Below, one piece after another: positions 7,172 to 29,198 of a stretch of 64,000 nt of DNA. A program made the position numbers and the translations under genes. Origin of the DNA: Candidatus Saganbacteria bacterium (GTDB taxonomy: Bacteria > Margulisbacteria > WOR-1 > O2-12-FULL-45-9 > XYB2-FULL-48-7). Below the pieces are notes generated by a model. It searched no databases. It was given only the letters and a program-made list of their open reading frames with translations, and was not told the origin of the DNA. Within the stretch, counting starts at the first letter, position 1; each line of letters opens with the position of its first letter. The stretch spans positions 15,230 to 79,229 of the forward strand of contig JAFGHC010000030.1 in NCBI GenBank assembly GCA_016939335.1. The letters run 5' to 3'.

Positions 7172-7267
7172 TTTTATCCTCTTAAGTCATCTTATCAAAT
7201 ATCTTTTTGCCCATCAATTCAGCACTAAACGCAATATTTTTATCGGACGCCCCCCTTGATGATCCGG

Positions 7268-8419: not shown

Positions 8420-9606
8420 TTGGACACCCCTCGCATGTTCTGCCCCGCGGGAGCGAGCTTCAGGGAATCGCTCGTGTTGCCGTCGCAGTGGTCGCAGGCG
8501 CGCAAAAAGGCCGTCTCAAGGAAGAACGCCCGCAACCGCTCTTGCGCGGCGGCCCGGTCCGGGCCCAGAGCGGAAATCCTGAGCGCGTCAGCCGGGTAGT
8601 CCGGGATTAGCCCGGTCTTTGTCCCGTGCGAAGAGCGCGGACAATGGTACAGCACCCCATCGAGCAATTCGGCGCACGAGTTGAAGTTGCACTTTGCGAA
8701 CAGTTCCTTGAGCTGCGCTTCGGTGCGGCGCCTTGGTTCGAAGCCGCCGAGGTCCGCCCACGCCCAGTGCCGGTTGACCCGGAAGTCGATGCCGTGGCGC
8801 CGCAGGGCCTCCGTCAGCGGCGCCAGTTTGCCTGACAGCTCTCCGTAGTCGTCAATGACCACTGACACTTTATCATGCTTCAACGATTCGAGCTCCCTTT
8901 CGGCCGGCACCACAGTGCCGTTGGTGACCACATCAAGATGGAGCACTTTCCCCGAATCAAGCAAATGCCTGGCGATCGGCGCGAAATCTTTGTGCAGGAA
9001 CGGCTCGCCCCCGAGGAGCTCGACGTGGTAAATGAGATCAACACCGGACAATATCCCGTCAAGAGCCGCGATCACCTCGGACGTATCGGAATCGGCCGGC
9101 TTACGGTAATGCGGCATCAGGCTGGAACAATGCCGGCATTTCAGCGTGCAGCGCGTCGTGATGACGACGTTCAGGCGGGGAACATGCAGATCGCCCGCCG
9201 GGAACTCCATCATTTCAGCCAGCTGGCCGATCTTGGCCAGGTGCCACATGATCTTTTCGAGGCTGGCCCGCGGCGTTCGCCGGAAATCGATGCAGCCGAT
9301 AACATCCGAATCGCTGAATACATCATTAAATCCCGCGGCCGCCAGCTGCCGGCTTATCTCATTAAAATACCGTCCGGCGGCGACAATCACCAGCGCGGCG
9401 GGATAATCGGCGCGCAGCCGCTCAAAAGAGATGACCGGATAGCCGTGGAACGGTTCGTTCTGCTTGCGCGCGTCGTTATCGCAGAACGCCGCCGGCTTGA
9501 TATTCAAGATCTCAAGCGAATCAAGGACTATTTTGCCGATGACCGACGCCCCGAAGATAACGACGGGGCGGGAAGTTCCCGAGACGGCCTGGAGGAATTT
9601 ATTCAC
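8416..9606 (-). CDS. Radical SAM/SPASM protein with N-terminal NeuD/PglD-N-like Rossmann domain
   Basis: 396 aa; VVIFGASVIGKIVLDSLEILNIKPAAFCDNDARKQ..VIVAAGRYFNEI resembles the N-terminal domain of PglD/NeuD-type enzymes, followed by TTRCTLKCRHCSS radical SAM motif and C-terminal Cys cluster (CNFNSC..C..CDHCDG); paralog of 1..1266. Confidence 0.65.
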   Translation of the reverse strand: MNKFLQAVSGTSRPVVIFGASVIGKIVLDSLEILNIKPAAFCDNDARKQNEPFHGYPVISFERLRADYPAALVIVAAGRYFNEISRQLAAAGFNDVFSDSDVIGCIDFRRTPRASLEKIMWHLAKIGQLAEMMEFPAGDLHVPRLNVVITTRCTLKCRHCSSLMPHYRKPADSDTSEVIAALDGILSGVDLIYHVELLGGEPFLHKDFAPIARHLLDSGKVLHLDVVTNGTVVPAERELESLKHDKVSVVIDDYGELSGKLAPLTEALRRHGIDFRVNRHWAWADLGGFEPRRRTEAQLKELFAKCNFNSCAELLDGVLYHCPRSSHGTKTGLIPDYPADALRISALGPDRAAAQERLRAFFLETAFLRACDHCDGNTSDSLKLAPAGQNMRGVSK

Positions 9607-10583
9607 GTCAGCGGCCTCCCGAGCACGTCCGGGGAAACCCCCTCAAGATCATCGATGGCGTACTCGTCGACCAGGAACGAGCAGTTCCGGCAGCTCTCGT
9701 TCTCGCGCCGCCTTTTTTCGAGCTGCAGGCGCCAGAATTCGCGCACCCGCTTCCCGCCCCAAATGGCGGAGATCTTTTCGGTCAGGGCGTTGCCCACGCA
9801 GGTGTTCCCCCGCCAGTCGGGGTCGCACATGATGACGTCGCCGTTGAAATGAACGCTCATCATTTTGAACGGCTGGGGGCAGACCTCCCGCCGCACCGGC
9901 CCGTCGGCGCCGGCCAGCCAGTGATGGGGCTTTTCCAGCGCCGCCTCATCGGCGATGTCCGAATATTCCTTCAGAAAAAGATCGTTCTCCGCCGGCTCAC
10001 CGCTTTCCAGCATTTTCACGTAGATGAACGGCCGCGCGGCGCCGGCCGCCGCGCGCAGCTCTCTTAACGCGGCGATGTTGTCCCTGATCGTTCTGACACT
10101 GGTCCGGCCCTGCGTCAGCGCCTCATGCTTTTTCTGATCGACCGCATAGATCGAACAGCGCAGGTAATCCAGCCCGGCATCGATCAGCTCCCGCGCGACC
10201 CGCGGGGTAAGCAGCGCCGCGTTCGTCGTGATCTCGAGCCGTTCGGCCAGACCGAGCTCTTTGCAATATTTCACCATCGCGGGGGTGGCGGGATTGAGCA
10301 GCGGCTCGCCGAAGCCGATGATCCGGACCACCTTTATTTTGGCGCCCGGCCAGGCCGCCAGGTCGTCCGCGATCATTTTAAAATCTTCGAATTTCATGTA
10401 TCCCCTTGGCAGATAGGAATGGAAGTCCGGCTCGTTCTGGAAACAGCAGCGGCATTTGAAATTGCAGACGCTGGCCGGCTCAAACAGGATGGTGAACGGC
10501 TTCGCCAGCGGGATCGCGTCGCGCAGGCTGACCCGTTTTTCCTTGAGGGCCGAATATTTTTCTTGACTACTGAATGTAATCAT
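9603..10583 (-). CDS. Radical SAM/SPASM(twitch)-domain protein, paralog C
   Basis: 326 aa; EPASVCNFKCRCC motif, C-terminal Cys-rich CPQPFK..C..C..CRNC; same family as 1289..2299 and 4360..5370. Confidence 0.7.
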   Translation of the reverse strand: MITFSSQEKYSALKEKRVSLRDAIPLAKPFTILFEPASVCNFKCRCCFQNEPDFHSYLPRGYMKFEDFKMIADDLAAWPGAKIKVVRIIGFGEPLLNPATPAMVKYCKELGLAERLEITTNAALLTPRVARELIDAGLDYLRCSIYAVDQKKHEALTQGRTSVRTIRDNIAALRELRAAAGAARPFIYVKMLESGEPAENDLFLKEYSDIADEAALEKPHHWLAGADGPVRREVCPQPFKMMSVHFNGDVIMCDPDWRGNTCVGNALTEKISAIWGGKRVREFWRLQLEKRRRENESCRNCSFLVDEYAIDDLEGVSPDVLGRPLT

Positions 10584-11679
10584 CCTTCTCCGTAAAGATC
10601 TCGCGGTAGTCGACCGGCAGCGGTTTGCCGTAGAACCGCGACATGTACTTGTCGATAAAGGCCCGGTCCTCTCCCGCCAAACAGATCGGGGAGCGGTTCC
10701 CGAAATACTTGATCTTCAGCCCGCGGTCGACGATCGTCTTGAGCGGTTCATCCAGAACATTGCCGATGGTGATATGCATGAAGACGCAGGGAAAGACGTC
10801 GCCGTATTGCGAGATATGAAAGCAGCCCTTCAGCGCGCCGCAGCCGCCGCGCATCCCGTACGATGGGAAAACATCGCGCCGGGCCGCCGGATATTTCTGG
10901 TTGAGCTCGCGGAGGAATTTGGCGTCCTCCGCGTCGATCAGGACGTCGTGGCGCCCTTCCCACTGCCCGAGCGCCTTGGCAATGACCAGATCGAGGGAAA
11001 AACCGTTCTCCTGGGCGAACTGCGCCAGCTTGACCGTCGCGTCAGTCCGGGCGTTCTGGTGCGTGATGACATGCTGAATGATCGTGTCGAGGCCGGCGTT
11101 CTTGGAATTCCAGATCGCGGCGATCGCCTTGCCGTACGCGCCGTCGCTGGCGCGGTTCGCGTTATGCAAGGCCTCGTCGTAGCTGTCGAGGCTGATCATC
11201 ACCTTGTCCAGCCCGGCCGCTTTCAGATGCTTCGCCTTTTCCGCCGTCAGGAAATAGCCGTTCGTGCTGATCCCGATATGGAATTTTTCCGGCATCAGCG
11301 CCCGCAGCACTTCGTCGAAGTTCTTCAGGATCAGCGGCTCGCCGCCGGAAACGTTGAACTGGCACCAGCCGAGCGCGTCGGCCTGTTCGGCGATGCTGCG
11401 CAGGTCCGCGAGGGTCAGCGAGCGGTCCTTCTTCTGGAACATATTGGCCATGCAGTGCTTGCACTTGAGGTTGCAGGCGTAGTTGTACCCGATGTCGATC
11501 CGGGAAGTTGGCTCCCCGCGCGCCTGTTTCTCCGCCAGCTTGATGATCTTCTCGTACACCAGCGGTTTTTCTCTTTTTAATTTTTCACGCTTGGCATTTT
11601 CAATCGCTTTTTTTAAATCATGATCTGACATTTGTCCCTCCCGGCTATTTATTATTAATGTACTCTCTATACATTTCAT
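10567..11679 (-). CDS. Radical SAM/SPASM-domain protein (distinct family, PqqE/anSME-like)
   Basis: 370 aa; GYNYACNLKCKHCMA CxxxCxxC motif; C-terminal GGCGALKGCFHISQYGDVFPC SPASM-like cluster; true start may be the internal Met MSDHDL. Confidence 0.7.
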   Translation of the reverse strand: MKCIESTLIINSREGQMSDHDLKKAIENAKREKLKREKPLVYEKIIKLAEKQARGEPTSRIDIGYNYACNLKCKHCMANMFQKKDRSLTLADLRSIAEQADALGWCQFNVSGGEPLILKNFDEVLRALMPEKFHIGISTNGYFLTAEKAKHLKAAGLDKVMISLDSYDEALHNANRASDGAYGKAIAAIWNSKNAGLDTIIQHVITHQNARTDATVKLAQFAQENGFSLDLVIAKALGQWEGRHDVLIDAEDAKFLRELNQKYPAARRDVFPSYGMRGGCGALKGCFHISQYGDVFPCVFMHITIGNVLDEPLKTIVDRGLKIKYFGNRSPICLAGEDRAFIDKYMSRFYGKPLPVDYREIFTEKDDYIQ

Positions 11680-12151
11680 GGACCTTTAAAAGATTTTCCG
11701 GGGCCCGGCTGAAAAAATCGTACATACCTGGCCGAGGCTCCCCCCCATGATATTTCAATTGCGACAACGGGCCGGTGACCAGCTTACAGCGATAGAGAAA
11801 GGAAATGGCGTGCCCCCGCTCGCGCATTGTCTTCGTGATGTGCTCGTAAGTCACTATCGGTTGGGCCTCAAAATCAATTTCACAGCCCAATTCAAGTTCT
11901 GCCACCTTGACGATTCGCTCGCGGGCAAGCTCCTGGAAGCGGATGATGCCGCCGGGAATGTGCCAGCCGCGGCCATGGTAGATGTCATCGCGCCACGTCA
12001 GGAGCACCCTGCCCTGATCGTCCTTGATCAGGAGATCGACGTTGACCATCGGGGTCAGGCCCGACAGCAGGAGAAAGACCGGCTCCGGCAGCCCCTGGCG
12101 CGGATCTTGGCACTCAGCCGCCAAAACCTTGATCGCTTCGTCAAGCTTCAT
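11645..12151 (-). CDS. NUDIX-family hydrolase (GDP-mannose mannosyl hydrolase-like)
   Basis: ORF track gives 11645..12214. The preferred start is the ATG at 12151 (MKLDEAIKVL), which overlaps the upstream TGA as ATGA. Degenerate Nudix-box-like GGIIRFQELARERIVKVAELELG. Confidence 0.45.
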   Translation of the reverse strand: MKLDEAIKVLAAECQDPRQGLPEPVFLLLSGLTPMVNVDLLIKDDQGRVLLTWRDDIYHGRGWHIPGGIIRFQELARERIVKVAELELGCEIDFEAQPIVTYEHITKTMRERGHAISFLYRCKLVTGPLSQLKYHGGEPRPGMYDFFSRAPENLLKVHEMYREYINNK

Positions 12152-12615
12152 GGCTGTTCCGCCTCCCCGATATATTCCAGCAGTTCCAGGAGGCAGCCAG
12201 CGCCACCGGCGCACTTGAGCTGCCGGTTGGCAACCGCCTTGACCGCCGGGACGGCATTGGCCGGACAGACCGCCAAACCGGCCAGCTTCATGGCCGCAAC
12301 ATCATACTTGCCATCCCCAACAAAGCAGATCTCTTCCCGCGTTGTTTTGGTCTGGAAGCGTATCTCGTTCAGGGCGGCCGCCTTATCCTTGCAGCCGCTG
12401 TAAAAAAAATCGGGCTGGAAGCGATCTCTGATCACTTTCGCGATCGACGTGGACTCGCCGGTGATCACCCCCACCTTCAACCCGCGCCGCTTCAGCTCAA
12501 AGATCGCGTCAATATCCCTGTAGTCTATGGTCTTGAACTCATTGCCCGACGAATCGAAAGTGACCTTGCCGTCCGTCAGCACGCCGTCAATATCCATCAC
12601 CACTATTTTAATCAT
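12148..12615 (-). CDS. KdsC-family HAD-IIIA sugar-phosphate phosphatase (Kdo-8-P/KDN-9-P phosphatase-like)
   Basis: 155 aa; VMDIDGVLTDG motif I, GDGKYD motif, size and motifs match the KdsC family. Confidence 0.7.
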   Translation of the reverse strand: MIKIVVMDIDGVLTDGKVTFDSSGNEFKTIDYRDIDAIFELKRRGLKVGVITGESTSIAKVIRDRFQPDFFYSGCKDKAAALNEIRFQTKTTREEICFVGDGKYDVAAMKLAGLAVCPANAVPAVKAVANRQLKCAGGAGCLLELLEYIGEAEQP

Positions 12616-14380
12616 CTTTGCTCACCGCCATGTTCTCCTCCAGTTCCTCGGCCGGCAGATCGGGCCACATCTCCTCCAGCGGCTTCGACGCCATTCCGCC
12701 GCCGGGCAGCTTCATCGCCCGCACCCTGGGCATGACCGGCTGATCGCTTCTGACCTTAAGGCGGCAGAGAACAGGTTCAGCCCCCGTCAAGACTTCCGCG
12801 ATCCCGGTTTTCAGATCCTGACCGCTCATTATCTCCGCCGGCCGCAGCTTGTACGCCCTGGCGACGGCGCAAATATCGGGCAACGTGAACCCGCTTGAGG
12901 CGTCCGCGCCGACGATGAAGCCGTTGAACATGTTCCGCTGGGTGTTGGCGATGCTCGCATAGCCGCCGTTGTCCAGGATGAACATCTTGAGCGGCAGCCG
13001 CAGCCGGCGCACCGTTTCCAGCTCCTGAAGATTGAGCTGAAAGGCGCCGTCGCCGTTGATCAGGACCGTGCGGCGCCCGCCCAGCGCCAGGCAAGAGCCG
13101 ATCGCGTAAGGCAGACCGAACCCCATCGAGCCGAGGCCCGCCGCATTTTTGACGCTCTGGCCGAACTTGACCCTCAGCGCCTGATAGGTCACCTCGCCGG
13201 CCGCGCCCGAACTTTCGGGCACTATTATGTCATCTGGTTTAAGCTGGCGGCAAAGTTCCGCAGTGAACCGGTAGAGATCGACCCCGTCAGCCGGCTCCGC
13301 GCCGTCATTCACTTCGGGATAACGCTTCTTCAGCCGCGCGCAATGGGCCAGCCACTCCGCATGGTCCGGCAGCTTGATCGTCAGCTCTGTCAACGCGCTC
13401 ACGGCCGTCTTGACATCAGCAATGACCCTTAAGTCCACATTCTCGATCTTATTGATCTCGGCCGCGTCAATGTCGATCATGATCTTGGACGCGTTGCGGC
13501 CAAAATCCCGACTGTTGAAGGCGGTCAGGCTCGGATCGAGCCGGCTGCCGAGGACCAGCAGCAGGTCGCAGGTCTGGACGATAAAATTCGCGTACCGGCT
13601 CCCCAGGATGCCGGGGAAGCCGAAATTAAGCGGATGATCATAGCCGAGGAAATCGGCTGTTTTCCAGGTCAGGACCATCGGGACCCGGTGCTTCTCCGCA
13701 AAATTCCTGACGGCCGCCGAGGCGCCGGAAAGTTTCACTCCGTTGCCGACGAGGATCAGGGGGCGTTTTGAACGTTCCAGCGCGGCAACGATCCGGTCGA
13801 GCGGGAGCTTTGGCTCAGGCGGCGCCGGTTTAACGTAACCCTGTAAAACATTTTCATCGACCATGGCCCCCTGCACGTCAAGGGGAATATCCAGCCAGAC
13901 CGGCCCCATCCGCCCCGTGGTCGCCTCGTGCCACGCCTTTTCGAGATGGAACCGCACCTCCCCTGGTTCCATAATGGTCACCGCGTACTTGGTGATGCAG
14001 CTGACCATGGAGATGATATCCACTTCCTGCGAGCCCATCTGCCGCACGCCGCTCTTCCCCTTAAGGTCGGAACGCTTTGCCTGGCCCGAGATGAACACGC
14101 ACGGTGTCGAATCGATATAAGCGGCGGCCACGGCGGTGATCGTATTCGTGCTCCCCGGGCCGGAAGTGACCAGTCCGACGCCGGGGCTGTTCAGATGCTG
14201 GCCGTGCGCTTCGACCGCGATCGCCAGGGCCTGTTCGTGGAAGAAACAGGTGTATTTCAGCTTCGGGCAGCGCCCCAGCGAATCGACCAGGTGAATAGCG
14301 CCGCCGCCGGGGAGCATGTACACCATCGTTATCCCCCGCGACACCAAAAAATTCATTATATAATCAGAAACTTTGATCAT
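12608..14380 (-). CDS. Thiamine-diphosphate-dependent enzyme, acetolactate-synthase-large-subunit fold (YerE-like sugar branching enzyme candidate)
   Basis: 590 aa; three-domain AHAS-like layout, TPP motif GDGAFQLN..(x25)..LDNGGY; embedded in the sugar operon. Confidence 0.7.
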   Translation of the reverse strand: MIKVSDYIMNFLVSRGITMVYMLPGGGAIHLVDSLGRCPKLKYTCFFHEQALAIAVEAHGQHLNSPGVGLVTSGPGSTNTITAVAAAYIDSTPCVFISGQAKRSDLKGKSGVRQMGSQEVDIISMVSCITKYAVTIMEPGEVRFHLEKAWHEATTGRMGPVWLDIPLDVQGAMVDENVLQGYVKPAPPEPKLPLDRIVAALERSKRPLILVGNGVKLSGASAAVRNFAEKHRVPMVLTWKTADFLGYDHPLNFGFPGILGSRYANFIVQTCDLLLVLGSRLDPSLTAFNSRDFGRNASKIMIDIDAAEINKIENVDLRVIADVKTAVSALTELTIKLPDHAEWLAHCARLKKRYPEVNDGAEPADGVDLYRFTAELCRQLKPDDIIVPESSGAAGEVTYQALRVKFGQSVKNAAGLGSMGFGLPYAIGSCLALGGRRTVLINGDGAFQLNLQELETVRRLRLPLKMFILDNGGYASIANTQRNMFNGFIVGADASSGFTLPDICAVARAYKLRPAEIMSGQDLKTGIAEVLTGAEPVLCRLKVRSDQPVMPRVRAMKLPGGGMASKPLEEMWPDLPAEELEENMAVSKDD

Positions 14381-15228
14381 TATTCGTGAGACTCCAGGCG
14401 GATATGCGATCTTAATTTTTTGGCGATCGGCACTTCTTTCTCCTGCATTTTCTTGACGCCATCCCCCATCGCCTTTTCGATCTTCCGCAGCCCGCCGATC
14501 ATCTGGACAAAGGTGGCCGGCTCCAGCGAAACCGCCTGATCGGAGCCGTACATGGCGCGGTCAAGCGTGATGTGCCTCTCCAGCGAGGTGATCCCAAGGG
14601 CGGCGGCGGCGTAGGAAACCGCGATCCCGCCCTCATGGCCGCTGTAACCGACGTCGCAACGGTAACGGTCGCGCAAGAGCGGGATACAATTCAGGTTGGC
14701 GTCCTCGTCATTGGTCGGATAGGTGGAAACGCAATGCATCAGCTCGAAAGGGCAATTCGCCTTCTTGAATATCTCCACCGCCCGGTCGACCATCTCGAGG
14801 TCGCACATCCCCGTGGAGATAAAAGTATGTTTCCGTTCCGCAGCGACCTGGCGCAGCAATTCCAGGTCGGGCATCATGGCCGAGGCGACCTTGTTATGTT
14901 TCAAGTTATACTGGTGCAGGAACGCCTGGCTCTCCCGGTCCCAGGCGGAAGCGAACCATTCGATCCCCTTCTCCCTGCAATAGCGATCGATCTCGTCATA
15001 TGCCGCCCGGCCAAGCTCCAAACCCAACTTTTGCTCCCGGGTGGTCGTCCCCCAGGGGCTTTCCCGGGGCTTGTCCAGTTCTTCTTTCGAATAAACCTTT
15101 TCGACCGTCCGTTTCTGGAACTTAACGGCATCGGCCCCGGCCACCTTCGCCACATCGATCAGCTGTTTGGCGATCTCGACGCTCCCGTTATGATTGATCC
15201 CGATCTCCGCAATAACAAAGATCCTCAT
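14380..15228 (-). CDS. NeuB-family sialic acid synthase-like aldolase (short, apparently lacking the C-terminal SAF domain)
   Basis: 282 aa; N-terminal IAEIGINHNGS signature of NeuB/PseI/LegI PEP-condensing synthases; about 60 aa shorter than canonical NeuB. Confidence 0.65.
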   Translation of the reverse strand: MRIFVIAEIGINHNGSVEIAKQLIDVAKVAGADAVKFQKRTVEKVYSKEELDKPRESPWGTTTREQKLGLELGRAAYDEIDRYCREKGIEWFASAWDRESQAFLHQYNLKHNKVASAMMPDLELLRQVAAERKHTFISTGMCDLEMVDRAVEIFKKANCPFELMHCVSTYPTNDEDANLNCIPLLRDRYRCDVGYSGHEGGIAVSYAAAALGITSLERHITLDRAMYGSDQAVSLEPATFVQMIGGLRKIEKAMGDGVKKMQEKEVPIAKKLRSHIRLESHE

Positions 15229-15251
15229 GATCTCCCTCCTTTAATTTCCGT

Positions 15252-18023
15252 TCAAACCGCCCTTTGACAAAAACCCCTGATCTGGTCGAGCGCATAATCG
15301 ATCATCTCCCCGGTCAGGCCCGGATAGACACCGATCCAAAACGCCTGCTTCATGACCAGATCGGTATTCTTTAATTCCCCCGCGACCCTATACCCTTGCT
15401 CCTTGCCCCTCATCTCGTCAAAACACGGATGCTTGACCATATTGCCGGCAAAAAGCATCCGGGTCTGGATCCCTTTCGATTCAAGGGATCTAACTATTTC
15501 GTCCCGGGAAAAGCCGGCCCGCTCTTTTACGGTCAAAAGAAACCCGAACCAGCTCGGCTCGGAGTTTTCCGCCGCTTCCGGCAGGACAAAAACACTCTTC
15601 AGCTCGTCCAGGCCCCGGCGGAGTTTCTCCCAGTTCTTCCTCCTGGCGGCAATGAAATTTGGGAGCTTCTCGAGCTGGGCGCAGCCGATGGCCGCCTGCA
15701 GATCGGTGGCCTTCAGGTTATAACCGAAATGAGAATAAACATACTTATGGTCGTACCCGTACGGCAAGGCGCCGAACTGTTGGGTAAATCGTTTACCGCA
15801 AGTGTTGTCCTTACCCGAAGGACACGAGCAATCCCTCCCCCAATCCCTGAACGACTCGACATTTTTCTTGAGCTGCGGGTCGTTGGTGTAAACCGCCCCG
15901 CCCTCCCCCATGGTATTATGCAAAAACACTCCCAGGAAACCACCATAAAAGTTTTCTTTCCCAGGCACTGAAAAATCATAAACATATTCATTTTCCCCAT
16001 AATTGATTTCTTGTATGCTTCTGATCTTTAAAAAGCCGACCTCCCCTGCAACCACCTTCAGTAAATCACTATTTGAAACAATATATTTTGCTAGCCGCTT
16101 TCTGGAAATCGTCTTTTGCCCTTTGCCAATACTTATATAATTCCTAAAGACATCCAACAGCGGGGCTTGAAGGGCAACATTGTTCCGTTCCTTCTTGTTC
16201 TGCTTGACGATGGATTTCCCCCGGTAAATATAACCGCTAAAACTAAGCGTATAGTTGTCTTGCGAGGTTGTCCAATTATTCCCGATCTTCTTTTTTTTAC
16301 CGATATTTCTCCTATAAAAAGAAGCGCTTATCCCCACCCTGGACAACAAGTATTGAAAATCATTTAACAAATCCAGGGAAACGCTGGTGACATCGATATG
16401 ATTCGTATTGCCGGCCCTTTTTCTTTCCGAACCGTCTCCCTTTGTGTATCCATATATAAAAGCTTTAATGCATTTTTCATCGCCGTGATAAATAAACCAT
16501 GGTATGCGCTTGTTCTTTGCTCCTTTTTTAATCGCAAAAATCTCCGAAAAGACAATCTCAACATTTTTTGATTGGACTTCGATAACGGCTGAATTCCCCG
16601 CCTCTCTGACGGCGACTGATAAACCGAACAACGCTTTAATAAGACGTTTGACATCATTGATCAAATCGCGCTCTTTCTTGTGAAAAGAGAAAACTAAACC
16701 GTTTTGGTATGCTCCTTCAGCAATAAAATAACCGATCAGGCGGAACAGCTCTTCATTGACCGGCAGTCGAGCGGGGATCTTGCGTGATTGCGCGATCCCA
16801 ACCAGTAATTCTTCTTTTTTCAGATCATACATTTTCAAGTACTTGATCGGTAAAGTATTTCTGTCCTTGAATTGCCATCGCTGGTCGGCCTTCTTGACAT
16901 ATTTAAGATTAAAACGCGAGAAACCCGACACATAAGCATCCTTGCCAAAAAAAGGCTCGAGAATATTTATAGAATCGATTTTCCCCGGGCTGGGGATCTC
17001 ACTAGTAACAACAATATAATCATTTTTGCCTATCAACCCTGCCTGCTTCGGCACTATTTTCGCAGAATTTTTATCCAACACAAAGACACTATGATCTTCC
17101 GTAACTTCAACTCGTCTGCCATGTTGACAGACTATTTTCATCATTTTCTTTTGTCCTAACTTATGTCTCAAAATAGAAGCGGGAATTGTCCATCTAACCT
17201 TATTGTCTTTATCAAACGACAAAACCTGGATTTTTTCAGGCTGATCAACATAAAGCTCGAATATTCTATCAATCCTGTCAACTCGCCAGCTTCCCTTTTC
17301 ATCCAAGTATGGAATTGGAGTGTTTTTTGAGCAACTCATATGGTGCGGCGGATAAAAGCTGGAAGTGCCGAGATCGCCAAAAGTTCCCGTATAACCCCAT
17401 TGGCCGTTCAAATTGTATCTCGAGCCCAAAGAATCACAATTGTCCTCGATCAGCCAGAGCTCATGCTCCTCGCAGAATTTCTTGACCCGGCCGACGTCAA
17501 AGGGGTTCCCCAGCGTGTGCGCCAGCATGACCGCCTTTGTTTTTTCCGATAAAGCCTTTTTAAGCTGGCGGCAATCGATGTTATAGCCCGGCAGCGTGAT
17601 GTCGGCAAAGACCGGGACCGCCCCAAACTGGATGATCGGGGCAATGGTGGTGGGAAAGCCGGCCGCCACCGTGATGACCTCATCGCCGGGCTTGATCCGC
17701 CGCGCGCCGAGTTCCGGCACGGTCAGCGCCATAAACGCCAACAGGTTGGCCGAAGAGCCGGAATTCACCAGCGAGCAATATTTGACGCCCAGAAATCCGG
17801 CCAGGCCCTGCTCGAATTTCTCCGCGTACCTGCCCATGGTCAGCCAGAATTCGAGGGAAGAATCGACCAGGTTCCCGATCTCTTTTTCATCGAAGACCCG
17901 GCCGGCGTAGGGAATGCGCTCACCGGGCACCCATGGCCTTTTCTTGTGATTAACCCTGTAATATTCTAGTGCGGCCTTGACGGCCTTTGCTCTTAATTGA
18001 TCCTCGTTTCTTTCGCTACACAT
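15252..18023 (-). CDS. ddhC: CDP-4-keto-6-deoxy-D-glucose 3-dehydrase (E1; DdhC/RfbH, DegT aminotransferase fold) interrupted by a LAGLIDADG intein
   Basis: 923 aa, versus about 430 aa for typical RfbH. The N-extein ends GDLGTSSFYPPHHM(S) and the C-extein resumes TMGEGGAVYTNDPQLKKNVESFRDWGRDCSCPSGKDNTCGKRF, collinear with the Salmonella RfbH motif SFYPAHHITMGEGG..FRDWGRDCYC. Confidence 0.85.
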   Translation of the reverse strand: MCSERNEDQLRAKAVKAALEYYRVNHKKRPWVPGERIPYAGRVFDEKEIGNLVDSSLEFWLTMGRYAEKFEQGLAGFLGVKYCSLVNSGSSANLLAFMALTVPELGARRIKPGDEVITVAAGFPTTIAPIIQFGAVPVFADITLPGYNIDCRQLKKALSEKTKAVMLAHTLGNPFDVGRVKKFCEEHELWLIEDNCDSLGSRYNLNGQWGYTGTFGDLGTSSFYPPHHMSCSKNTPIPYLDEKGSWRVDRIDRIFELYVDQPEKIQVLSFDKDNKVRWTIPASILRHKLGQKKMMKIVCQHGRRVEVTEDHSVFVLDKNSAKIVPKQAGLIGKNDYIVVTSEIPSPGKIDSINILEPFFGKDAYVSGFSRFNLKYVKKADQRWQFKDRNTLPIKYLKMYDLKKEELLVGIAQSRKIPARLPVNEELFRLIGYFIAEGAYQNGLVFSFHKKERDLINDVKRLIKALFGLSVAVREAGNSAVIEVQSKNVEIVFSEIFAIKKGAKNKRIPWFIYHGDEKCIKAFIYGYTKGDGSERKRAGNTNHIDVTSVSLDLLNDFQYLLSRVGISASFYRRNIGKKKKIGNNWTTSQDNYTLSFSGYIYRGKSIVKQNKKERNNVALQAPLLDVFRNYISIGKGQKTISRKRLAKYIVSNSDLLKVVAGEVGFLKIRSIQEINYGENEYVYDFSVPGKENFYGGFLGVFLHNTMGEGGAVYTNDPQLKKNVESFRDWGRDCSCPSGKDNTCGKRFTQQFGALPYGYDHKYVYSHFGYNLKATDLQAAIGCAQLEKLPNFIAARRKNWEKLRRGLDELKSVFVLPEAAENSEPSWFGFLLTVKERAGFSRDEIVRSLESKGIQTRMLFAGNMVKHPCFDEMRGKEQGYRVAGELKNTDLVMKQAFWIGVYPGLTGEMIDYALDQIRGFCQRAV
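15915..17333 (-). other. Intein (473 aa) with LAGLIDADG homing-endonuclease domain inside ddhC
   Basis: It begins with Cys (CSKNTPIPYL) directly after HHMS. Block B is VEVTEDHSVFV (TxxH). The two LAGLIDADG motifs are LIGYFIAEGAY and FIYGYTKGDG. Blocks F/G are VYDFSVPGKENFYGGFLGVFLHN, followed by +1 Thr. The intein DNA is AT-richer than the exteins. The N boundary could shift one residue (Ser230). Confidence 0.85.
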
Positions 18024-19737
18024 TATTGTTCACCCGCCCCAAGCCAACCGCTCGCTTGAGCGAATTAAGCGCCTGATTAAATGCCCCGCGGATCAGATAT
18101 CTTCTTGGCCAGATTTGCTCATAAAATCTATACGAAAGCACTGGCATTAAAGTGTACACGGCCAGTAAAACATTGAGCGTGAACTTGAACAAGCTCGACG
18201 ATAAAAAGAAGCGGCGTGCGCAGGCGCGGCAATACATCATCGCGAAATAATAGTATTTTGATTTAAGCACATAATTCCCATAGTGGCTGACTGTTTTACA
18301 ATGAGGGCATTCGACCGAAAGCGAAAATGTCCCATCCTTCGCTTTCGCCGCCTTCCATTTTTTGGCATAGACACGGTCCTTAATAACCGCCTTGTTTATC
18401 TCATACCATAAACGCGCGAACGCCCGGTCCGTCAGGCTATCGCTCATGTTAAAAAGGCCGAAGATCCGGTTCTCGATGAAATCAATTTTATCTTTGATAA
18501 TCCCTTTTCCCAGGCATTTCTGATAAAGCGGGGTGCCCGGATAAGGGCTAATAAAGTTCAACATTATGCCCGCCTCCCGGTTCGCTTTCCAGTAGCTCAA
18601 AGTTTCTTTGATCGTTTGCCTGGTCTCGGCCGGATCGCCAAAAATAAAATTAGCCTGAAGGCTGATCTTATTCTTCAGGGTCAGCCTGACCGCCCGGTCA
18701 ATCTGTTCGGCGGTAATGCGCTTTTTCATGCTCTTGAGAACAGCCGGGCTATAACTTTCGAAACCATAACTTATTGAATAACAACCCGCTTCCTTCATGG
18801 CCTTCAACGTTGGCTCATCTAATTTATCAACCCGCATCTGACAACCCCATTTACATGGCCAGCTGATTTCTTTTAGCAGGATTTTGATCTGCCGGCAGAA
18901 TTCAGCCAGCCATTCCCGATCGTCGGAGAACAACTCGTCATAAATCCAGATCAGGTTAATGCGGTAGCGTTTTACCATGGCTGATAATTCTTCCATTATC
19001 GATTTAATAGATCGCTGCCGGTACTTTTGGCCGATCGGATGGTAGCAAAAAGTGCACGAATAGGGGCAAGAGCGGCTGCAGATGATGGGATAAACTCTCG
19101 GCTGATCAAATAATTCCATCCCGAAGTAGTCGGAGGGGCGCATTTTCTCCAGATACTTATCATATTCAAATGATTCGAAATCCGGCCAGGGGAGTGAATC
19201 AATGTCCGCTATCGGCGCACGAGCCTTCGTCAGAATGATCTGACCGGCTTGATCACGATAACCGATGCCCGCGACCCTGCCAATCTCCCCCTGCTTCTCA
19301 AGGTATGAGATAAGCTCACAGATCGTTTCTTCTCCTTCGCCCAGAACGATAAAGTCCGGGCTTAAAACAGAAAACATCAATTCCGGCTCACTGGAGATCA
19401 AGCCGCCCCCCAAAATCAATTTGATCTCCGGCTGACCGGCATGGAAAGCTTCGACCACCGCTTTGATCTGACGGTAGCTGGTCGAGATCCCCCCCGTGCA
19501 GGCAACCTCGAAGGGCCCGTGCTTCTTAATATAATTATTGAGCAGTTCCGGAATGGCCCCGTAATAATGGTTAAGGTTAAAACAGGCCACCTGATGCCCG
19601 GCTTGTTTCAAGACGGAAGAAAGATACGCCAGCCCCAGCGGGAACATATAATTATAGTTCTCCGCTTCTTCCAGCCGCATACGCGGGACAACGATCAATA
19701 TCCTCATTTCATATATTCCTCGATCTGCTGCCAGCAT
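18016..19737 (-). CDS. B12-binding (class B) radical SAM enzyme
   Basis: 573 aa; N-terminal B12-binding-like domain (RILIVVPRMRLEE..MFPLGLAYLSSVL), radical SAM motif CSRSCPYSCTFCYHP. Confidence 0.7.
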   Translation of the reverse strand: MLAADRGIYEMRILIVVPRMRLEEAENYNYMFPLGLAYLSSVLKQAGHQVACFNLNHYYGAIPELLNNYIKKHGPFEVACTGGISTSYRQIKAVVEAFHAGQPEIKLILGGGLISSEPELMFSVLSPDFIVLGEGEETICELISYLEKQGEIGRVAGIGYRDQAGQIILTKARAPIADIDSLPWPDFESFEYDKYLEKMRPSDYFGMELFDQPRVYPIICSRSCPYSCTFCYHPIGQKYRQRSIKSIMEELSAMVKRYRINLIWIYDELFSDDREWLAEFCRQIKILLKEISWPCKWGCQMRVDKLDEPTLKAMKEAGCYSISYGFESYSPAVLKSMKKRITAEQIDRAVRLTLKNKISLQANFIFGDPAETRQTIKETLSYWKANREAGIMLNFISPYPGTPLYQKCLGKGIIKDKIDFIENRIFGLFNMSDSLTDRAFARLWYEINKAVIKDRVYAKKWKAAKAKDGTFSLSVECPHCKTVSHYGNYVLKSKYYYFAMMYCRACARRFFLSSSLFKFTLNVLLAVYTLMPVLSYRFYEQIWPRRYLIRGAFNQALNSLKRAVGLGRVNNNV

Positions 19738-20750
19738 TTTTTTCTAACGTCTTCGCCGCGCTGATAGGGTCTGGTCCATTCAATCACTTTAGCCAGCGCT
19801 TCTCCGAGGCGGTATTTCGGCCGCCATTTTAATTGCTTTTTTGCCTTGGAATTATCTAATCTCAAACAAGCCGTTTCATGAGGCTGCTGGCCGCACTCAA
19901 TTATATAAGCGGCTTCTCCGCCCCAGACCCGGCATAACTCTTTGACAAGCCATTCGACCGATCTAGCGTCACTGTCGTCCGGCCCGAAATTCCAGGCCCC
20001 GGCATATTTATCGCCGCTCCGGTACAACTTCTCGGCTAAAATCAGATAGCCCATTAACGGCTCCAAAACATACTGCCAGGGACGCGTGGCTTTGGGGTTC
20101 CTGATTTTAATTCTTTCGCCTTTTAAAACCGCCCGGACAAAATCCGGAACCAATCTGTCAACCGCCCAGTCCCCTCCCCCGATCACATTCCCGGCCCGGG
20201 CGGTCGCGACGTTCATCCCGTATGACCGCCGGTAAGCCTGGGCGACAAGTTCCGAGCACGCTTTGCTGCTCGAGTAAGGATCATGCCCTCCTAATGCGTC
20301 AGTTTCTTTAAAACCCGCGTCCCTCATCCCCCGTACCCCAGACCTGATCTCGTACACCTTATCCGTCGTCACATTGACGACCGCCCGGACGCTTTTACCG
20401 GCCCTGGCCGCCTCAAGCACGTTGACCGTCCCCATCACATTGACTGCGAAGGTCTCGCTCGGTACCTTATATGATTCTCTCACGATCGGCTGGGCCGCCA
20501 TGTGGATCACGATCTCCGGCTTGGCAGCTGACATGGCCTTTTTCAGCGACTTGGAATCCCTTACGTCAGCAATCACCGAACTGACCAATTCATCAACCTT
20601 ACATAAATTAAATAGGCTCGGGTTGGTCGGCGGACGCAGGGCATAGCCGGTCACTTTCGCCCCGAGCAGGCTTAGCCAGAGGCAAAGCCAGGAGCCCTTA
20701 AAGCCGGTGTGGCCGGTAATAAACACCCTTTTCTTGCGCCAGAATTCCAC
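19704..20750 (-). CDS. rfbG: CDP-glucose 4,6-dehydratase
   Basis: 348 aa; GTG start with AAGGGGG Shine-Dalgarno; RVFITGHTGFKGSWLCLWL..HMAAQPIVRESY..NVMGTVNVLEA collinear with Salmonella/Yersinia RfbG/DdhB. Confidence 0.85.
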   Translation of the reverse strand: MEFWRKKRVFITGHTGFKGSWLCLWLSLLGAKVTGYALRPPTNPSLFNLCKVDELVSSVIADVRDSKSLKKAMSAAKPEIVIHMAAQPIVRESYKVPSETFAVNVMGTVNVLEAARAGKSVRAVVNVTTDKVYEIRSGVRGMRDAGFKETDALGGHDPYSSSKACSELVAQAYRRSYGMNVATARAGNVIGGGDWAVDRLVPDFVRAVLKGERIKIRNPKATRPWQYVLEPLMGYLILAEKLYRSGDKYAGAWNFGPDDSDARSVEWLVKELCRVWGGEAAYIIECGQQPHETACLRLDNSKAKKQLKWRPKYRLGEALAKVIEWTRPYQRGEDVRKKCWQQIEEYMK

Positions 20751-20762
20751 TCTAACCCCCTT

Positions 20763-20846
20763 AATTAAACAATGTCACAATTAAACAACTCACAGCCAAA
20801 ATTAAACAATTCTCAACTAAAATTAAACAATGACACAATTAAACAA
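20763..20846. repeat. Array of 5 AATTAAACAA units (left arm of inverted repeat arrays flanking the 4-helix-bundle gene)
   Basis: AATTAAACAA at 20763, 20779, 20800, 20821 and 20837 with 5-12 nt spacers; reverse complement of the TTGTTTAATT units at 21251-21338. Confidence 0.8.
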
Positions 20847-20860
20847 TTCACAAATATTAG

Positions 20861-21250
20861 TTAATTGTCTAATTGCGCCGAAGCCTTGGTCAGTATACTG
20901 CTCAAGATATTCCTTAATTCAAGGCTTTCCCGCAATAAGTCGTCAATTTCTTTCTTGTTCACTTCATTTTCCAATAATCCGACCTCTTTCACTATTCTAA
21001 GCCAATAAGTGGTTTCCCTCGCTTCTCTTCGGGCAATTCCCATTTTATAAATAAAATCCTTTTTGGAATGAGCGTCGTCCGCTTCTTCCACGTTCGCGCC
21101 AATCGACGTCCCCGCCGCCATTAATTGTTCCCCCAGCTTAAAGCCCGCCGTGCTCTTAGGGAAGGCCATCACGAGCTTTATGATCCTCAAGCTAAAATCA
21201 AAAGTCCTGTCTTTTATATCAAACTTTTTTCGCTCTATTTTATTTCCCAT
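20861..21250 (-). CDS. Four-helix-bundle protein (23S rRNA intervening-sequence protein family)
   Basis: 129 aa; all-helical, K/E-rich, central GTSIGANVEEAD..ARRE motif typical of the S23-IVS/four-helix-bundle family; AT-rich relative to flanks; bracketed by inverted repeat arrays. Confidence 0.6.
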   Translation of the reverse strand: MGNKIERKKFDIKDRTFDFSLRIIKLVMAFPKSTAGFKLGEQLMAAGTSIGANVEEADDAHSKKDFIYKMGIARREARETTYWLRIVKEVGLLENEVNKKEIDDLLRESLELRNILSSILTKASAQLDN

Positions 21251-21338
21251 TTGTTTAATTGTTTAATTGTGATTTGTTTAATTGTTTAATTGTGATTTGT
21301 TTAATTGTTTAATTGGGTTTTGTTTAATTGTTTAATTT
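21251..21338. repeat. Array of about 8 TTGTTTAATT units (24-nt super-unit TTGTTTAATTGTTTAATTGTGATT twice, plus variants)
   Basis: Direct tandem repeats read from sequence; inverted relative to the 20763-20846 array; overlaps the 3' end of rfbF. Confidence 0.8.
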
Positions 21339-22113
21339 ATCCCCAAACCTTCCAGGCCGCCTGGCCCGACCGCCAGAGCTCTTCAAGCATATTTTTCTCC
21401 CTCAAAGTATCCATCGGCTGCCAGAAACCGTTATGTTTATAGGCCATCAATTGGCCTTCCTTGGCCAGCCTTTTTACCGGCATGTTCTCAAAGGCCATCT
21501 GATCCCCCTCGATATAATCGATGACTTTCGGATCCAGGACAAAAAAGCCGCCGTTGATCCAGGTATAGTTCCCCTCGGTCTTCTCCAGGAATCTCTCCAC
21601 GGTATTTTCTTTGCTGATCCGCAAGGCGCCGAACCGTCCGAGCGGCCTGACGGCGGTCACGGTCGCCAGCTTGCCGTGGGCGCGATGAAAGTCCAGTAAT
21701 TCCTTAAGGTTAATATCGGCAACGCCATCGCCATACGTGAACATAAAAGGTTCGTTACCAAGGTACTCCTTCACCCTTTTCAGCCGGCCGCCGGTCTGGG
21801 TCTCCAGCCCCGTATCGACCAGGGTCACCTCCCAGGGCTCGGCCGTATGGCTATGAATAACTTTCTTTTCGCCTTTATTGAAATTAAAAGTGACATCAGA
21901 TTCATGCAAAAAATAATTCCTGAAATACTCTTTAATCAGGTACCCTTTATAGCCGACGCAAATGACAAACTCATTAAAGCCGTAATGAGAATATCCCTTC
22001 ATGATATGCCAGAGGATCGGTTTTTCACCGATATCAAGCATCGGCTTTGGCTTGAGATAAGATTCCTCGCCGATCCTTGTCCCCTGCCCGCCCGCCAAGA
22101 TAACGACTTTCAT
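21337..22113 (-). CDS. rfbF: Glucose-1-phosphate cytidylyltransferase
   Basis: 258 aa; [76 protein letters not shown] nearly collinear with Salmonella RfbF ([39 protein letters not shown]..). Confidence 0.9.
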   Translation of the reverse strand: [258 protein letters not shown]

Positions 22114-22131
22114 GTCATTCCGCCTCCTCGT

Positions 22132-23628
22132 TTATTTTATGACCTGATAAATAACGATTTGATTGTCACGCTTCTGCCCTTCACTACCATAACCCGGGTC
22201 ATTCACCTTGCCGAAAACCCGGCAATGATCGCTTAAATACCTGCCCAGGTATGCGGCGTGAAAATGTTGTTTTAAATGGGACTCCTGATAAATAATATAT
22301 TTGATATTAAGCTCCTTGATCCGCCGGGCAAACCCGGCGTAGGTCTGGCAATCGTTATCCGGCGCGAGCGAACTGTTCTCGAACGCGTAAAACTTGTATT
22401 CCAGCAGGCCGGGATAGAGCGACATATTCCCGGCCACGGCAAAATCACCCGGCCGGGGCAAGACCGCTTTTAGCTTGCCGGCATAGCGATAATAGTCGTA
22501 ATCATGGTATTTGTGCCAGTAAAACCCCAGACCAGACAGATTGATCACAATAAATAGACCGATCAGCAAAGACACCGGCCGGCCAAATATCTGCTTTAAA
22601 TAAATGACCGTGAAATAAACGAACGGCAGCAGGACCAGATAATAATATTCGCTCATTCTAGGCATAACGATAAAGATTGGCAAAAAACAGAGTGCCGGGC
22701 CCAGGATCCGGCCGATCGTCCGCCATTGCTCGTTGGTCATCCGGCGCCGATCAGCGACCGCCCAAAGCATGCCTGCCAGGAAGAGGAGTGTCGCATTCAA
22801 CGTCTTGTAGTTGACAAAAAAGGCCGCATACCGCAGTAAGATCCCGCCAAAGTTGAAGCTTTCCAGGCTTTTCCTGACAACAATAACTTGAAAATAAAAT
22901 GAATTGAAATCGCTGAAGAGCCAGATCAGATAAGGGACCAGCGGCAAGATAAAGCCGGCTAAAATCAATGCGGCACGTGCTAGTTTCCCCTCTTTCCGGC
23001 TGAACAGCCAGCAGACCATCAGGTAGATCAGCGCGTAAATGCCGTAAAAATGGGTCAGGACCGCCAGCCCCGCCAGCAAACCGCCCAGCAACAAATAGAA
23101 AGACCCCTTGCTCCGCTCCGAGCGTAAATAAGCCAGGATGGCCAGCAGGGAAAGCAAAAGGGTCGGCATTTCCGGCCGGACATAACGGGCCATGATGAAA
23201 TAGAACGGGTTGCTGAGGAACATGATCGCCAGCAGCCATGCGTCTTCGGTCGCCAACTGGAACCGCGCCAGCGACCGGTAAAGCCAGGGGACGGTCAGCA
23301 ACACCAGAAAAGAAGCAAGCAGCGCCAGCACTCTCCCCTGCAGGATGCCGAAACCGATCAGCTTGAACAGCAGGCCGTTCAGCAGATAAAAGAAGGGCGG
23401 GTGAATGTGAAAATAGCGGCTTTCATTATGCCCGGCCTCAAGCATCCGGCTTCCCAGATAACCGTGCAAAGCAAAAGTCCGGGAAACTTCTAACAAGCCA
23501 CCGTCATCCACCCGGATAAACGGCACGGCATCGATCTTGTAGCAATAAGTCAGCAATAAAGCGCCGGCGACCGCTATTAGCACGGCCAAATAAATGCCTT
23601 TTTTATTAAAGATCAACTTTTTCTCCAT
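22132..23628 (-). CDS. Polytopic membrane glycosyltransferase, GT-C fold (ArnT/PMT, GT39/GT83-like)
   Basis: 498 aa; about 11 predicted TM helices, N-terminal periplasmic-loop motif ESRYFHIHPPFFY reminiscent of the ArnT/PMT DE..RY motif. Confidence 0.55.
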   Translation of the reverse strand: MEKKLIFNKKGIYLAVLIAVAGALLLTYCYKIDAVPFIRVDDGGLLEVSRTFALHGYLGSRMLEAGHNESRYFHIHPPFFYLLNGLLFKLIGFGILQGRVLALLASFLVLLTVPWLYRSLARFQLATEDAWLLAIMFLSNPFYFIMARYVRPEMPTLLLSLLAILAYLRSERSKGSFYLLLGGLLAGLAVLTHFYGIYALIYLMVCWLFSRKEGKLARAALILAGFILPLVPYLIWLFSDFNSFYFQVIVVRKSLESFNFGGILLRYAAFFVNYKTLNATLLFLAGMLWAVADRRRMTNEQWRTIGRILGPALCFLPIFIVMPRMSEYYYLVLLPFVYFTVIYLKQIFGRPVSLLIGLFIVINLSGLGFYWHKYHDYDYYRYAGKLKAVLPRPGDFAVAGNMSLYPGLLEYKFYAFENSSLAPDNDCQTYAGFARRIKELNIKYIIYQESHLKQHFHAAYLGRYLSDHCRVFGKVNDPGYGSEGQKRDNQIVIYQVIK

Positions 23629-24713
23629 TAAATGCCCAGCACTTCCTTGAGGCCGATCGGCTCGCCTTTGACCTGCCGGCGGTAAACACCGCGCATCAGT
23701 TTCCAGATAAAACCAGGGATAAATACCAGAGGGACAATTTTCAGCCAGAACATGGGATGCGTCCAGTAGACCCTGAAGAGGAAAGGCAGAATATCCCCGA
23801 TAAAGCGCCGGGGATTTTCTATCCTTAACCTGACCGCCCAGGAAAAGCCATCATTTCTAATAACCAGTTCATCAATTAAGCGAATATACTTTTTGTCCTC
23901 AAAAACAGCGCTGGAAACTTTCCGATAAATCGAAACATCCTGTCTCAGCCGCAACTCAGCAAAAGGCAGGGATTTCCACTGCTCAAGCTCGGGCGTCCCT
24001 TCCTTGCCCCACCGCCTTTTGACCAGAGGCGCCGGCAGGTACTTAATCGTTCCCGGCTCGCCCCCCCACAGGAGCGCCTGAAAAACATAAAGATGCAGAT
24101 AAAAAGTGCCTGTAAACTCCTCTTTACCCCTGACGCGCAGCCATTTTTCCCGGAGAAAAATGATGTTCGAAATATAATTGCAATAAGCGATCAGCTTCTT
24201 ATTCGCCTTAAAATACCGGTCGACTTCCTCCTTTCGGGAAAAATCAAAGGTCTCCGCCCGGACGAACGGCATGATCTTGCGCCGGCGCATCGGCCGGTCC
24301 GGAGTTAAATAGAAATCCTCTTTTTCTCCCAGATAAAGATCTACCTGATCCTCCCCCTCCAATTCCCGCAAAACACTTTTCAGCGCCCCCGGGGCAAGCA
24401 GGTCATCCGAGCCTAACAGCCAAATATACCTGCCAAGAGCGCGCCCTACCAGCAACTGGAAATTATTGTCCATGCCAACATTCTTTTCGTTTTTAAAATA
24501 TTTGACCGTTAGTTTTGTGCTTGCTTTTATCTTATCTATTACCGCATCGGTCGAATCGGTCGATGCGTTGTCAGAGATGAGAACCTCAAAGTCACCGGCC
24601 TTTACTTCGGCTGCCTGCGCCAAAATGCTGGCCACTGCTTCCTGCAGCGTCTCCGCCCGATTGTAGGTCGGGATACAAATCGACAGCAACGGCTGTTTTT
24701 GTTCAGAACTCAC
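23628..24713 (-). CDS. Family 2 glycosyltransferase (copy 1)
   Basis: 361 aa; LLSICIPTYNRAETL..LISDNASTD (GT2 DxD-type N-terminal domain); paralog of 26686..27750. Confidence 0.75.
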   Translation of the reverse strand: MSSEQKQPLLSICIPTYNRAETLQEAVASILAQAAEVKAGDFEVLISDNASTDSTDAVIDKIKASTKLTVKYFKNEKNVGMDNNFQLLVGRALGRYIWLLGSDDLLAPGALKSVLRELEGEDQVDLYLGEKEDFYLTPDRPMRRRKIMPFVRAETFDFSRKEEVDRYFKANKKLIAYCNYISNIIFLREKWLRVRGKEEFTGTFYLHLYVFQALLWGGEPGTIKYLPAPLVKRRWGKEGTPELEQWKSLPFAELRLRQDVSIYRKVSSAVFEDKKYIRLIDELVIRNDGFSWAVRLRIENPRRFIGDILPFLFRVYWTHPMFWLKIVPLVFIPGFIWKLMRGVYRRQVKGEPIGLKEVLGI

Positions 24714-26679: not shown

Positions 26680-26685
26680 AGCTTT

Positions 26686-29195: not shown

Positions 29196-29198
29196 GTT

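Follow-up and report, generated by a model that had tools for sequence, protein, structure and literature searches.

A predicted class 1 LAGLIDADG intein beside the catalytic histidine of an RfbH/DdhC sugar dehydrase from Candidatus Saganbacteria

Introduction

What interrupts an enzyme gene of sugar-nucleotide biosynthesis two codons past its catalytic histidine, where exactly does the interruption begin, and is it likely to leave a working enzyme? These questions are raised by an open reading frame (ORF) in a 64,000-nucleotide stretch of Candidatus Saganbacteria DNA (contig JAFGHC010000030.1 of assembly GCA_016939335.1, positions 15,230 to 79,229; hereafter the window). The ORF is 2772 nt long, fully open, and encodes 923 residues (104.8 kDa). 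Pfam matches it to DegT_DnrJ_EryC1 (278 bits) in two separate stretches, to Intein_splicing (64 bits, cut-off 35.8) and, again in two stretches, to LAGLIDADG_3 (61 bits, cut-off 22.5). We read it as a complete RfbH/DdhC (E1, CDP-4-keto-6-deoxyglucose 3-dehydrase) split by a full-length LAGLIDADG-endonuclease intein. An earlier note on this DNA, made from the sequence, had proposed a class 1 LAGLIDADG intein beside the catalytic histidine of a CDP-sugar 3-dehydrase, and the evidence from profiles, structure, homologues and context bears this out: a full-length class 1 intein that includes a two-motif homing endonuclease very probably sits in the gene between Met229 and Thr704.

The window ORF is identical to NCBI record MBN3033559.1, and the Logan assembly of SRR13394437 contains the same protein. 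The record is titled 'DegT/DnrJ/EryC1/StrS family aminotransferase [Candidatus Saganbacteria bacterium]'; it annotates neither RfbH nor an intein and can be corrected on both counts.

Results

The exteins form a complete RfbH/DdhC

When residues 230-703 are removed, the remaining 449 residues reach 726 bits against NF011936, the RfbH equivalog of NCBIfam (cut-off 423), with one uninterrupted match to positions 3-438 of 440. The spliced extein also aligns end to end with the E1 enzyme of Yersinia pseudotuberculosis (DdhC/AscC/RfbH, Protein Data Bank (PDB) entry 3bcx), with 512 bits. Both checks that the earlier note had put forward thus came out in its favour, since Intein_splicing and LAGLIDADG_3 score above their Pfam cut-offs and the extein is contiguous with E1/RfbH across the junction. 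Every intein string that it had quoted is likewise present in the translation of the 923-residue ORF: FYPPHHMS-CSKNT at residues 223-235, VEVTEDHSVFV with T308 and H311, LIGYFIAEGAY from residue 429 and FIYGYTKGDG from residue 522. VYDFSVPGKENFYGGFLGVFLHN ends at N703, and the next residue is T704.

In E1 enzymes the catalytic acid/base is a histidine in place of the aminotransferase lysine, and a [2Fe-2S] cluster is held by four cysteines (PMC8987622). His227 of the window protein is aligned with His220 of 3bcx, the residue that is Lys in the mutant 3bb8. All four cluster cysteines are kept as well, Cys196 (aligned with C193 of E1) in the N-extein and C732-x-C734-x7-C742 in the C-extein. The two enzymes further share the operon partnership with RfbF and RfbG. 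They differ in that the Yersinia protein has no intein, that in the window extein, where 4 extra residues precede the catalytic loop, the spacing relative to the first Fe-S cysteine is 4 residues longer, and that no E3 partner gene was found near the window gene.

The insert lies between Met229 and Thr704, two residues past the catalytic histidine, and parts His227 and one Fe-S cysteine from the remaining three Fe-S cysteines. Because of this split the precursor would be expected to be inactive before splicing, and it is reasonable to infer from the sequence that enzyme activity depends on it.

The intein begins with a serine

Which residue opens the intein? The earlier note had it start with Cys after HHMS, and its interval (15915..17333) corresponds exactly to Cys231-Asn703. 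Comparison with related sequences indicates instead that intein residue 1 is Ser230. All 30 homologues in which the N-terminal junction is present have this serine, whereas the position after it holds Cys (19 homologues) or Val (11). With the boundary at Cys231, the extein aligns with Yersinia E1 only through a one-residue gap at the junction (hhmstmgegg versus hhi-tmgegg), and the same gap is needed against eight close intein-less orthologues (71-79% identical), all of which read SSF[FY]P[PA]H[HQ][IM]TMGEGG at this point. Furthermore, the RfbH P0040, whose own, different intein lies at another place, has an uninterrupted SSFYPPHHMTMGEGG at the window insertion site. Since colinearity with intein-less RfbH is obtained only under the Ser boundary, and since Ser is invariant while its neighbour varies, the intein is best started at Ser230. 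As a consequence the proposed downstream end at 15915 stands, while the upstream end moves 3 nt further out (17336, not 17333) and the length becomes 474 rather than 473 residues. The statement that removal of the insert rejoins HHM-TMGEGG is also correct, as intein-less orthologues read the same, but it is incompatible with the Cys start proposed alongside it.

The competing view is that Cys231 is the nucleophile and Ser230 is kept in the extein, so that the mature enzyme would read HHMSTMGEGG, with one extra residue in its catalytic loop. Cys is indeed the commonest residue 1 among inteins, and the window protein and 19 of the 30 homologues have it at position 231. However, the eleven homologues with Val retain every other splicing residue, and related inteins in UXS-like dehydratases also have Ser as their first residue, right after the canonical RIFN. 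Together with the one-residue gap against E1 and the close orthologues, this makes a start at Cys231 improbable, and we rejected it.

Class 1 splicing residues and a conserved endonuclease

The Ser230 boundary gives an intein of the form Ser1 ... His-Asn / Thr+1. We aligned 16 members of the intein family, 32-72% identical. S1, T79, E207, G300-D301-G302, D454, H473 and N474 (intein numbering) are invariant in all 16, and H82 is present in 15. The class 1 features T308-E-D-H311, D683, H702-N703 and T704 are hence all present in the window protein and kept in 15-16 of the 16 aligned homologues. Signs of class 2 (Ala1) or class 3 (a block F cysteine and the WCT motif) are absent: residue 1 is Ser, block F reads VYDFSV without Cys, and the only cysteines of the window intein are at intein positions 2, 70 and 289. 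Judged by its sequence, that is, by the Ser at residue 1 and the lack of a block F cysteine, the insert is a class 1 intein.

Comparison with solved structures agrees with this assignment. A phmmer sequence search found PI-PkoII (5.8e-15), the Mja and Mvu TFIIB mini-inteins and VMA inteins, and blocks F and G align with the C-termini of PI-PkoII and the TFIIB inteins. An AlphaFold2 model built from the 16-member alignment (pLDDT 91.3, pTM 0.90) was compared to the PDB with Foldseek. The best matches were all intein homing endonucleases, namely 2cw7 (E 6e-32, TM 0.74), 7qss, 7qsu, 7qst, 1dq3 and PI-SceI, while mini-inteins and the free-standing I-DmoI each cover one half of the model. The endonuclease half of the fold is matched by the endonuclease domains of PI-PkoII, PI-PfuI and PI-SceI, and by free-standing I-DmoI and I-Tsp061I. 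The closest relatives by both sequence and fold, PI-PkoII (intein 2 of the Thermococcus kodakarensis DNA polymerase, 2cw7) and the TliVMA and PhoVMA inteins (7qss, 7qst), likewise combine a Hint domain with a two-motif LAGLIDADG endonuclease, and have the C-terminal HN and a block F YDxSV in common with the window intein. They are nevertheless only 18-19% identical to it, and interrupt an archaeal DNA polymerase and a V-ATPase rather than a sugar enzyme. A further difference is that the window intein uses Ser1 and Thr+1 and has extra segments at 116-190 and 346-430 that are poorly conserved even in its own family.

We also compared conservation between domains across the family. Per-domain conservation was used instead of the ratio of nonsynonymous to synonymous substitution rates, because synonymous sites would saturate at amino-acid identities of 72% or less. 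In the close group, conservation is 64% for the LAGLIDADG core and 60-70% for the Hint domain; the corresponding figures for the distant group are 43% and 40-50%. As the core is as conserved as the Hint domain, these sequence data argue that the endonuclease is under continuing selection in the intein family. A profile hidden Markov model from the 16-member alignment, run against all six-frame ORFs, matched only the interrupted gene, and hence detected no second intein in the window.

Distribution of the insertion

A search with the intein and short extein flanks recovered 42 proteins, about 33 of which are DegT-family proteins with an intein at the same site, the best of them 72% identical. 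A scan of one genome per species (185,579 species) gave 14 loci. Eleven of them (L001-L011) are DegT-site inteins of 35-72% identity, the site having been checked individually in seven (L001, L002, L005, L007, L008, L009 and L011); the other three (L012-L014) are 23-28% identical to the window intein. The hosts of the eleven are Roizmanbacteria, Moraniibacteriota, Paceibacterota, other Patescibacteria, Saganbacteria, Elusimicrobia and one Pacearchaeota archaeon. Open N-extein/intein/C-extein frames with the intein at the same site were found in Saganbacteria (L001, L002), Elusimicrobia (L009), the candidate phyla radiation (CPR; L005, L007, L008) and Pacearchaeota (L011). In L001, L002, L007, L009 and L011 the frame closes with a stop codon beyond the C-extein, and in L005 and L008 it hits the contig end within the C-extein. 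The site in the Pacearchaeota metagenome-assembled genome (MAG) is occupied in a DegT-family gene (L011, 6001..7458; GHIT/SVAPKTPIPF...CLHN/STVEGG), so that the allele crosses the boundary between bacteria and archaea.

The intein-bearing DegT proteins of both searches (P0001-P0033, L001-L011) share with the window protein the site H-[HQT]-[ML] / S...HN / [ST], the Ser1 and the domain layout, at 32-72% identity. The distant group among them belongs to a different DegT subfamily, which has STIEGG where RfbH has TMGEGG, and one JGI record among these homologues is already titled '...transaminase/intein/homing endonuclease'. In a profile search of 1.84 billion cluster representatives the top matches were 7 DegT clusters, of which 5 were already in the 42-protein set and the other two (P0283, P0284) are DegT by Pfam. 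The next-closest inteins in that search are in T2SSE-type ATPases and XPD-like helicases.

Empty sites are far more numerous. At E <1e-100 more than 8000 homologues of the spliced extein were found, the best 120 of which all lack an intein domain. In a second Saganbacteria genome (L016) the rfbH of a partly syntenic operon is without the intein, which means that occupied and empty alleles coexist within Saganbacteria.

Related inteins, 23-27% identical and also of the Ser1/Thr+1 type, occur in different hosts and at different insertion sites, in UXS/RmlB-like NAD-dependent sugar-nucleotide dehydratases (P0034-P0038; RIFN/S...HN/TYGPR), and the intein lineage may prefer sugar-nucleotide enzymes. 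The earlier description of the host as uncommon holds in so far as about 33 intein-bearing proteins stand against more than 8000 intein-less ones, but less so in that related inteins are also found in other sugar-nucleotide enzymes. Inteins in the UDP-glucose dehydrogenase and the glutamine-fructose-6-phosphate transaminase of Methanocaldococcus jannaschii are reportedly recorded in InBase. Inteins outside replication and repair proteins are hence already established, and an RfbH host is unusual without being unique in kind. What the locus adds to the short list of intein sites outside replication, repair and ATPase proteins is the catalytic loop of a 3-dehydrase dependent on pyridoxamine 5'-phosphate and an Fe-S cluster, a site common to bacterial candidate phyla and DPANN archaea. 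A literature search that covered sources other than subscription journals and InBase found no paper on an intein in a DegT, RfbH, DdhC or ColD protein, and these enzymes are not mentioned in the main text of the intein survey of Novikova et al.

A broader reading can be built on these data, in which the inteins form an undescribed lineage specialized in sugar-nucleotide enzymes (the DegT/RfbH catalytic loop and the UXS-like RIFN/TYGPR site), with cysteine-free junctions (Ser1/Thr+1 or Ser1/Ser+1) and a spread over CPR, Saganbacteria, Elusimicrobia and DPANN, whose slow splicing through oxygen nucleophiles could, in hosts like the present one, gate the synthesis of a surface dideoxyhexose after translation. 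We regard it as speculative and rather unlikely as a whole.

Within this enzyme family, further intein positions were also seen. The different intein of the RfbH P0040 has the junctions IEDN/C...LLHN/CDALGS, its +1 Cys being the first Fe-S ligand, and another protein (P0016) carries the catalytic-loop intein and a second one starting WGRS/C.

Base composition and origin of the insert

The GC content of the intein is 0.398, against 0.558 for the N-extein and 0.549 for the C-extein, a difference far beyond chance, and GC at third codon positions is 0.43 against 0.71 and 0.70. The insert is thus AT-richer than its exteins, as had been proposed, although to speak of a high-GC operon was an overstatement: window GC is 54% and the neighbouring genes range from 45 to 62%. 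The inteins of all 11 other hosts are likewise AT-rich (GC 0.25-0.41), each exceeding its exteins in AT content. The copy in the window combines the highest-GC host (extein 0.55 versus 0.33-0.52), the highest-but-one intein GC (0.40) and the largest contrast between intein and extein. This suggests horizontal arrival from a low-GC lineage, followed by partial amelioration. Identities of intein and extein to the nearest relatives are similar (71.5% versus 76% for L001, 68% versus 69-73% for L002), and by themselves do not tell vertical from horizontal descent.

Could the contrast be due to the assembly, a low-GC CPR fragment having been joined into a contig of higher GC? The source is a MAG, the insert is marked by a sharp fall in GC, and low-GC MAGs contain the closest relatives. 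On the other hand, the shift follows the in-frame intein boundaries to the codon, at an extein site shared with independent genomes; the identical protein is found on two contigs, in both the Logan and the NCBI collections; and no other sequence found is more than 72% identical to the insert, whose GC of 0.40 is intermediate and not CPR-like (0.25-0.33). An artefact of this kind would be extraordinary. The codon-exact shift at a shared site, the presence of the protein on two contigs and the lack of a close source sequence led us to exclude a chimeric assembly.

Proposed splicing and homing, and alternatives

The residues present predict a standard class 1 pathway. A 105-kDa precursor would be translated first. 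Ser230 would then carry out an N-O acyl shift at the Met229-Ser230 bond, the ester would be transferred to the side chain of Thr704, cyclisation of Asn703, assisted by His702, would release the intein, and an O-N shift would leave a normal Met-Thr peptide bond. The expected products are a 449-residue, 50.4-kDa RfbH with the native SSFYPPHHMTMGEGG active-site loop and a free intein of 54.3 kDa. Under the Ser1 boundary the predicted junction peptide of the ligated RfbH is ...SSFYPPHHMTMGEGGAVYTNDPQLK. In homing, the free intein would cut an intein-less rfbH at the DNA for HHM/TMGEGG, and repair would copy the intein in. The predicted empty target site of 60 bp is ACTTCCAGCTTTTATCCGCCGCACCATATG/ACCATGGGGGAGGGCGGGGCGGTTTACACC, and the L016 and L017 versions would serve as natural empty sites; the clean empty and occupied alleles are a ready pair for homing tests. 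In its mechanism this is a standard class 1 LAGLIDADG intein, which does not change what is known of how inteins work, yet the two oxygen nucleophiles, Ser1 and Thr+1, are of practical interest for cysteine-independent protein ligation tools.

Some points weigh against an active, mobile intein in a functional pathway. Splicing and endonuclease activity are predictions from the sequence. Ser1 and Thr+1 are weaker nucleophiles than Cys, so that slow or conditional splicing is conceivable. The GC contrast is partly a trait of the intein family, and to that extent no proof of a very recent transfer. Finally, the pathway context is incomplete, as the dedicated E3 reductase (DdhD/AscD), the usual partner of E1/RfbH, was not found among the 39 window proteins scanned. 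The E3 gene may be located beyond the window, or the role of E3 may fall to general ferredoxin/flavodoxin reductases. SpnQ is reported to be served by such general reductases (PMC8987622).

Another alternative is a splicing-dead intein, with rfbH effectively a pseudogene in a cluster that no longer makes a 3,6-dideoxyhexose. The lack of an E3 gene among the window proteins scanned fits this view. However, the 2772-nt frame is fully open, S1, T79, H82, D454, H473, N474 and T+1 are all intact, the exteins are 71-79% identical to functional-type RfbH, and the catalytic histidine and four Fe-S cysteines are kept. We hold a dead intein to be very unlikely.

A more serious alternative is that the intein splices while its endonuclease is inactive or without targets, leaving a fixed passenger that is no longer mobile in this lineage. 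In the homing cycle a fixed intein usually goes on to lose its endonuclease function, and with a nearest relative only 72% identical no very recent copy event is visible. In contrast, neither the two catalytic acidic residues nor the GDG of motif 2 varies, conservation in the LAGLIDADG core matches that in the splicing domain among sequences of 32-72% identity, and the coexistence of occupied and empty alleles within Saganbacteria is as expected of an ongoing cycle of gain and loss. Immobility is thus conceivable, with perhaps a modest chance of being right, and we favour an intein that would both splice and home.

Gene neighbourhood

The interrupted gene is part of a long same-strand glycan cluster (window 1289..29951, minus strand), in which the genes for RfbF and RfbG lie upstream of rfbH. 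The features of the gene and its neighbours are collected in Table 1.

Table 1. Parts of the interrupted rfbH gene and genes of the surrounding cluster (window coordinates)
Feature	Position	Strand	Basis or detail
Precursor ORF: N-extein, intein and C-extein	15252..18023	-	923 aa
N-extein, residues 1-229, end ...SSFYPPHHM	17337..18023	-	alignment to 3bcx and H220K mutant 3bb8
Fe-S ligand Cys196 (N-extein)	17436..17438	-	residue positions, alignment
Catalytic His227 (N-extein), aligned with His220 of Yersinia E1	17343..17345	-	alignment
Intein, residues 230-703, 474 aa, 54.3 kDa, GC 0.40	15915..17336	-	profiles, homologues, structure model
Ser230, intein residue 1, predicted N-terminal nucleophile, block A	17334..17336	-	30/30 homologues, colinearity
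Block B T-E-D-H, Thr308...His311 (intein T79/H82)	17091..17102	-	T invariant, H in 15/16
LAGLIDADG motif 1 LIGYFIAEG, catalytic Glu436 (intein E207)	16713..16739	-	Pfam LAGLIDADG_3; E207 in 16/16
LAGLIDADG motif 2 FIYGYTKGDG, catalytic Asp530 (intein D301)	16431..16460	-	G300-D301-G302 invariant
Blocks F and G: VYDFSV (Asp683, intein D454) ... FLHN (His702, Asn703)	15915..15983	-	D454, H473, N474 in 16/16
C-extein, residues 704-923 and stop codon, begins TMGEGG	15252..15914	-	alignment, residue positions
Thr704, predicted +1 nucleophile	15912..15914	-	first C-extein residue
CxCx7C Fe-S ligands Cys732/734/742 (C-extein)	15798..15830	-	residue positions
CDP-glucose 4,6-dehydratase RfbG/DdhB, makes the RfbH substrate	19704..20750	-	NCBIfam TIGR02622 468 bits, cut-off 278
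Glucose-1-phosphate cytidylyltransferase RfbF/DdhA	21337..22113	-	NCBIfam TIGR02623 418 bits, cut-off 300
Radical S-adenosylmethionine (SAM) enzymes	1289-2299, 4360-5370, 8416-9606, 9603-10583, 10567-11679	-	
B12-binding radical SAM enzymes	5501-7171, 18016-19737	-	
Sugar C-methyltransferase-like protein	7268-8419	-	

The cluster is unusually rich in radical SAM genes, with at least seven. It also contains an FkbM methyltransferase, a NUDIX protein, a KdsC-like phosphatase, a NeuB-like synthase and an acetolactate-synthase/YerE-like thiamine pyrophosphate enzyme, together with several methyltransferases, glycosyltransferases and flippases. Judging by its content, the product may be a dideoxyhexose or nonulosonic acid that is heavily modified and possibly branched-chain.

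Between rfbF and rfbG there is an AT-rich ORF of 129 residues (20861..21250, minus strand; GC about 0.36), to which the Logan gene call assigns Pfam PF05635 '23S_rRNA_IVP', a four-helix-bundle protein. With it, the rfbH operon holds two inserts of foreign composition.

The remaining window holds chromosomal housekeeping and flagellar genes. Its RecG matches a Candidatus Saganbacteria MAG protein at 100% identity, with Margulisbacteria/WOR-1 proteins as the next-best hits. The window also has a Fic / 'mobile mystery protein B'-like gene (38915-39934) and, after it, several ORFs without an NCBIfam match (41207-42184, 43310-44167 and 46064-46972), and the region 38915..46972 may be a mobile or defence island.

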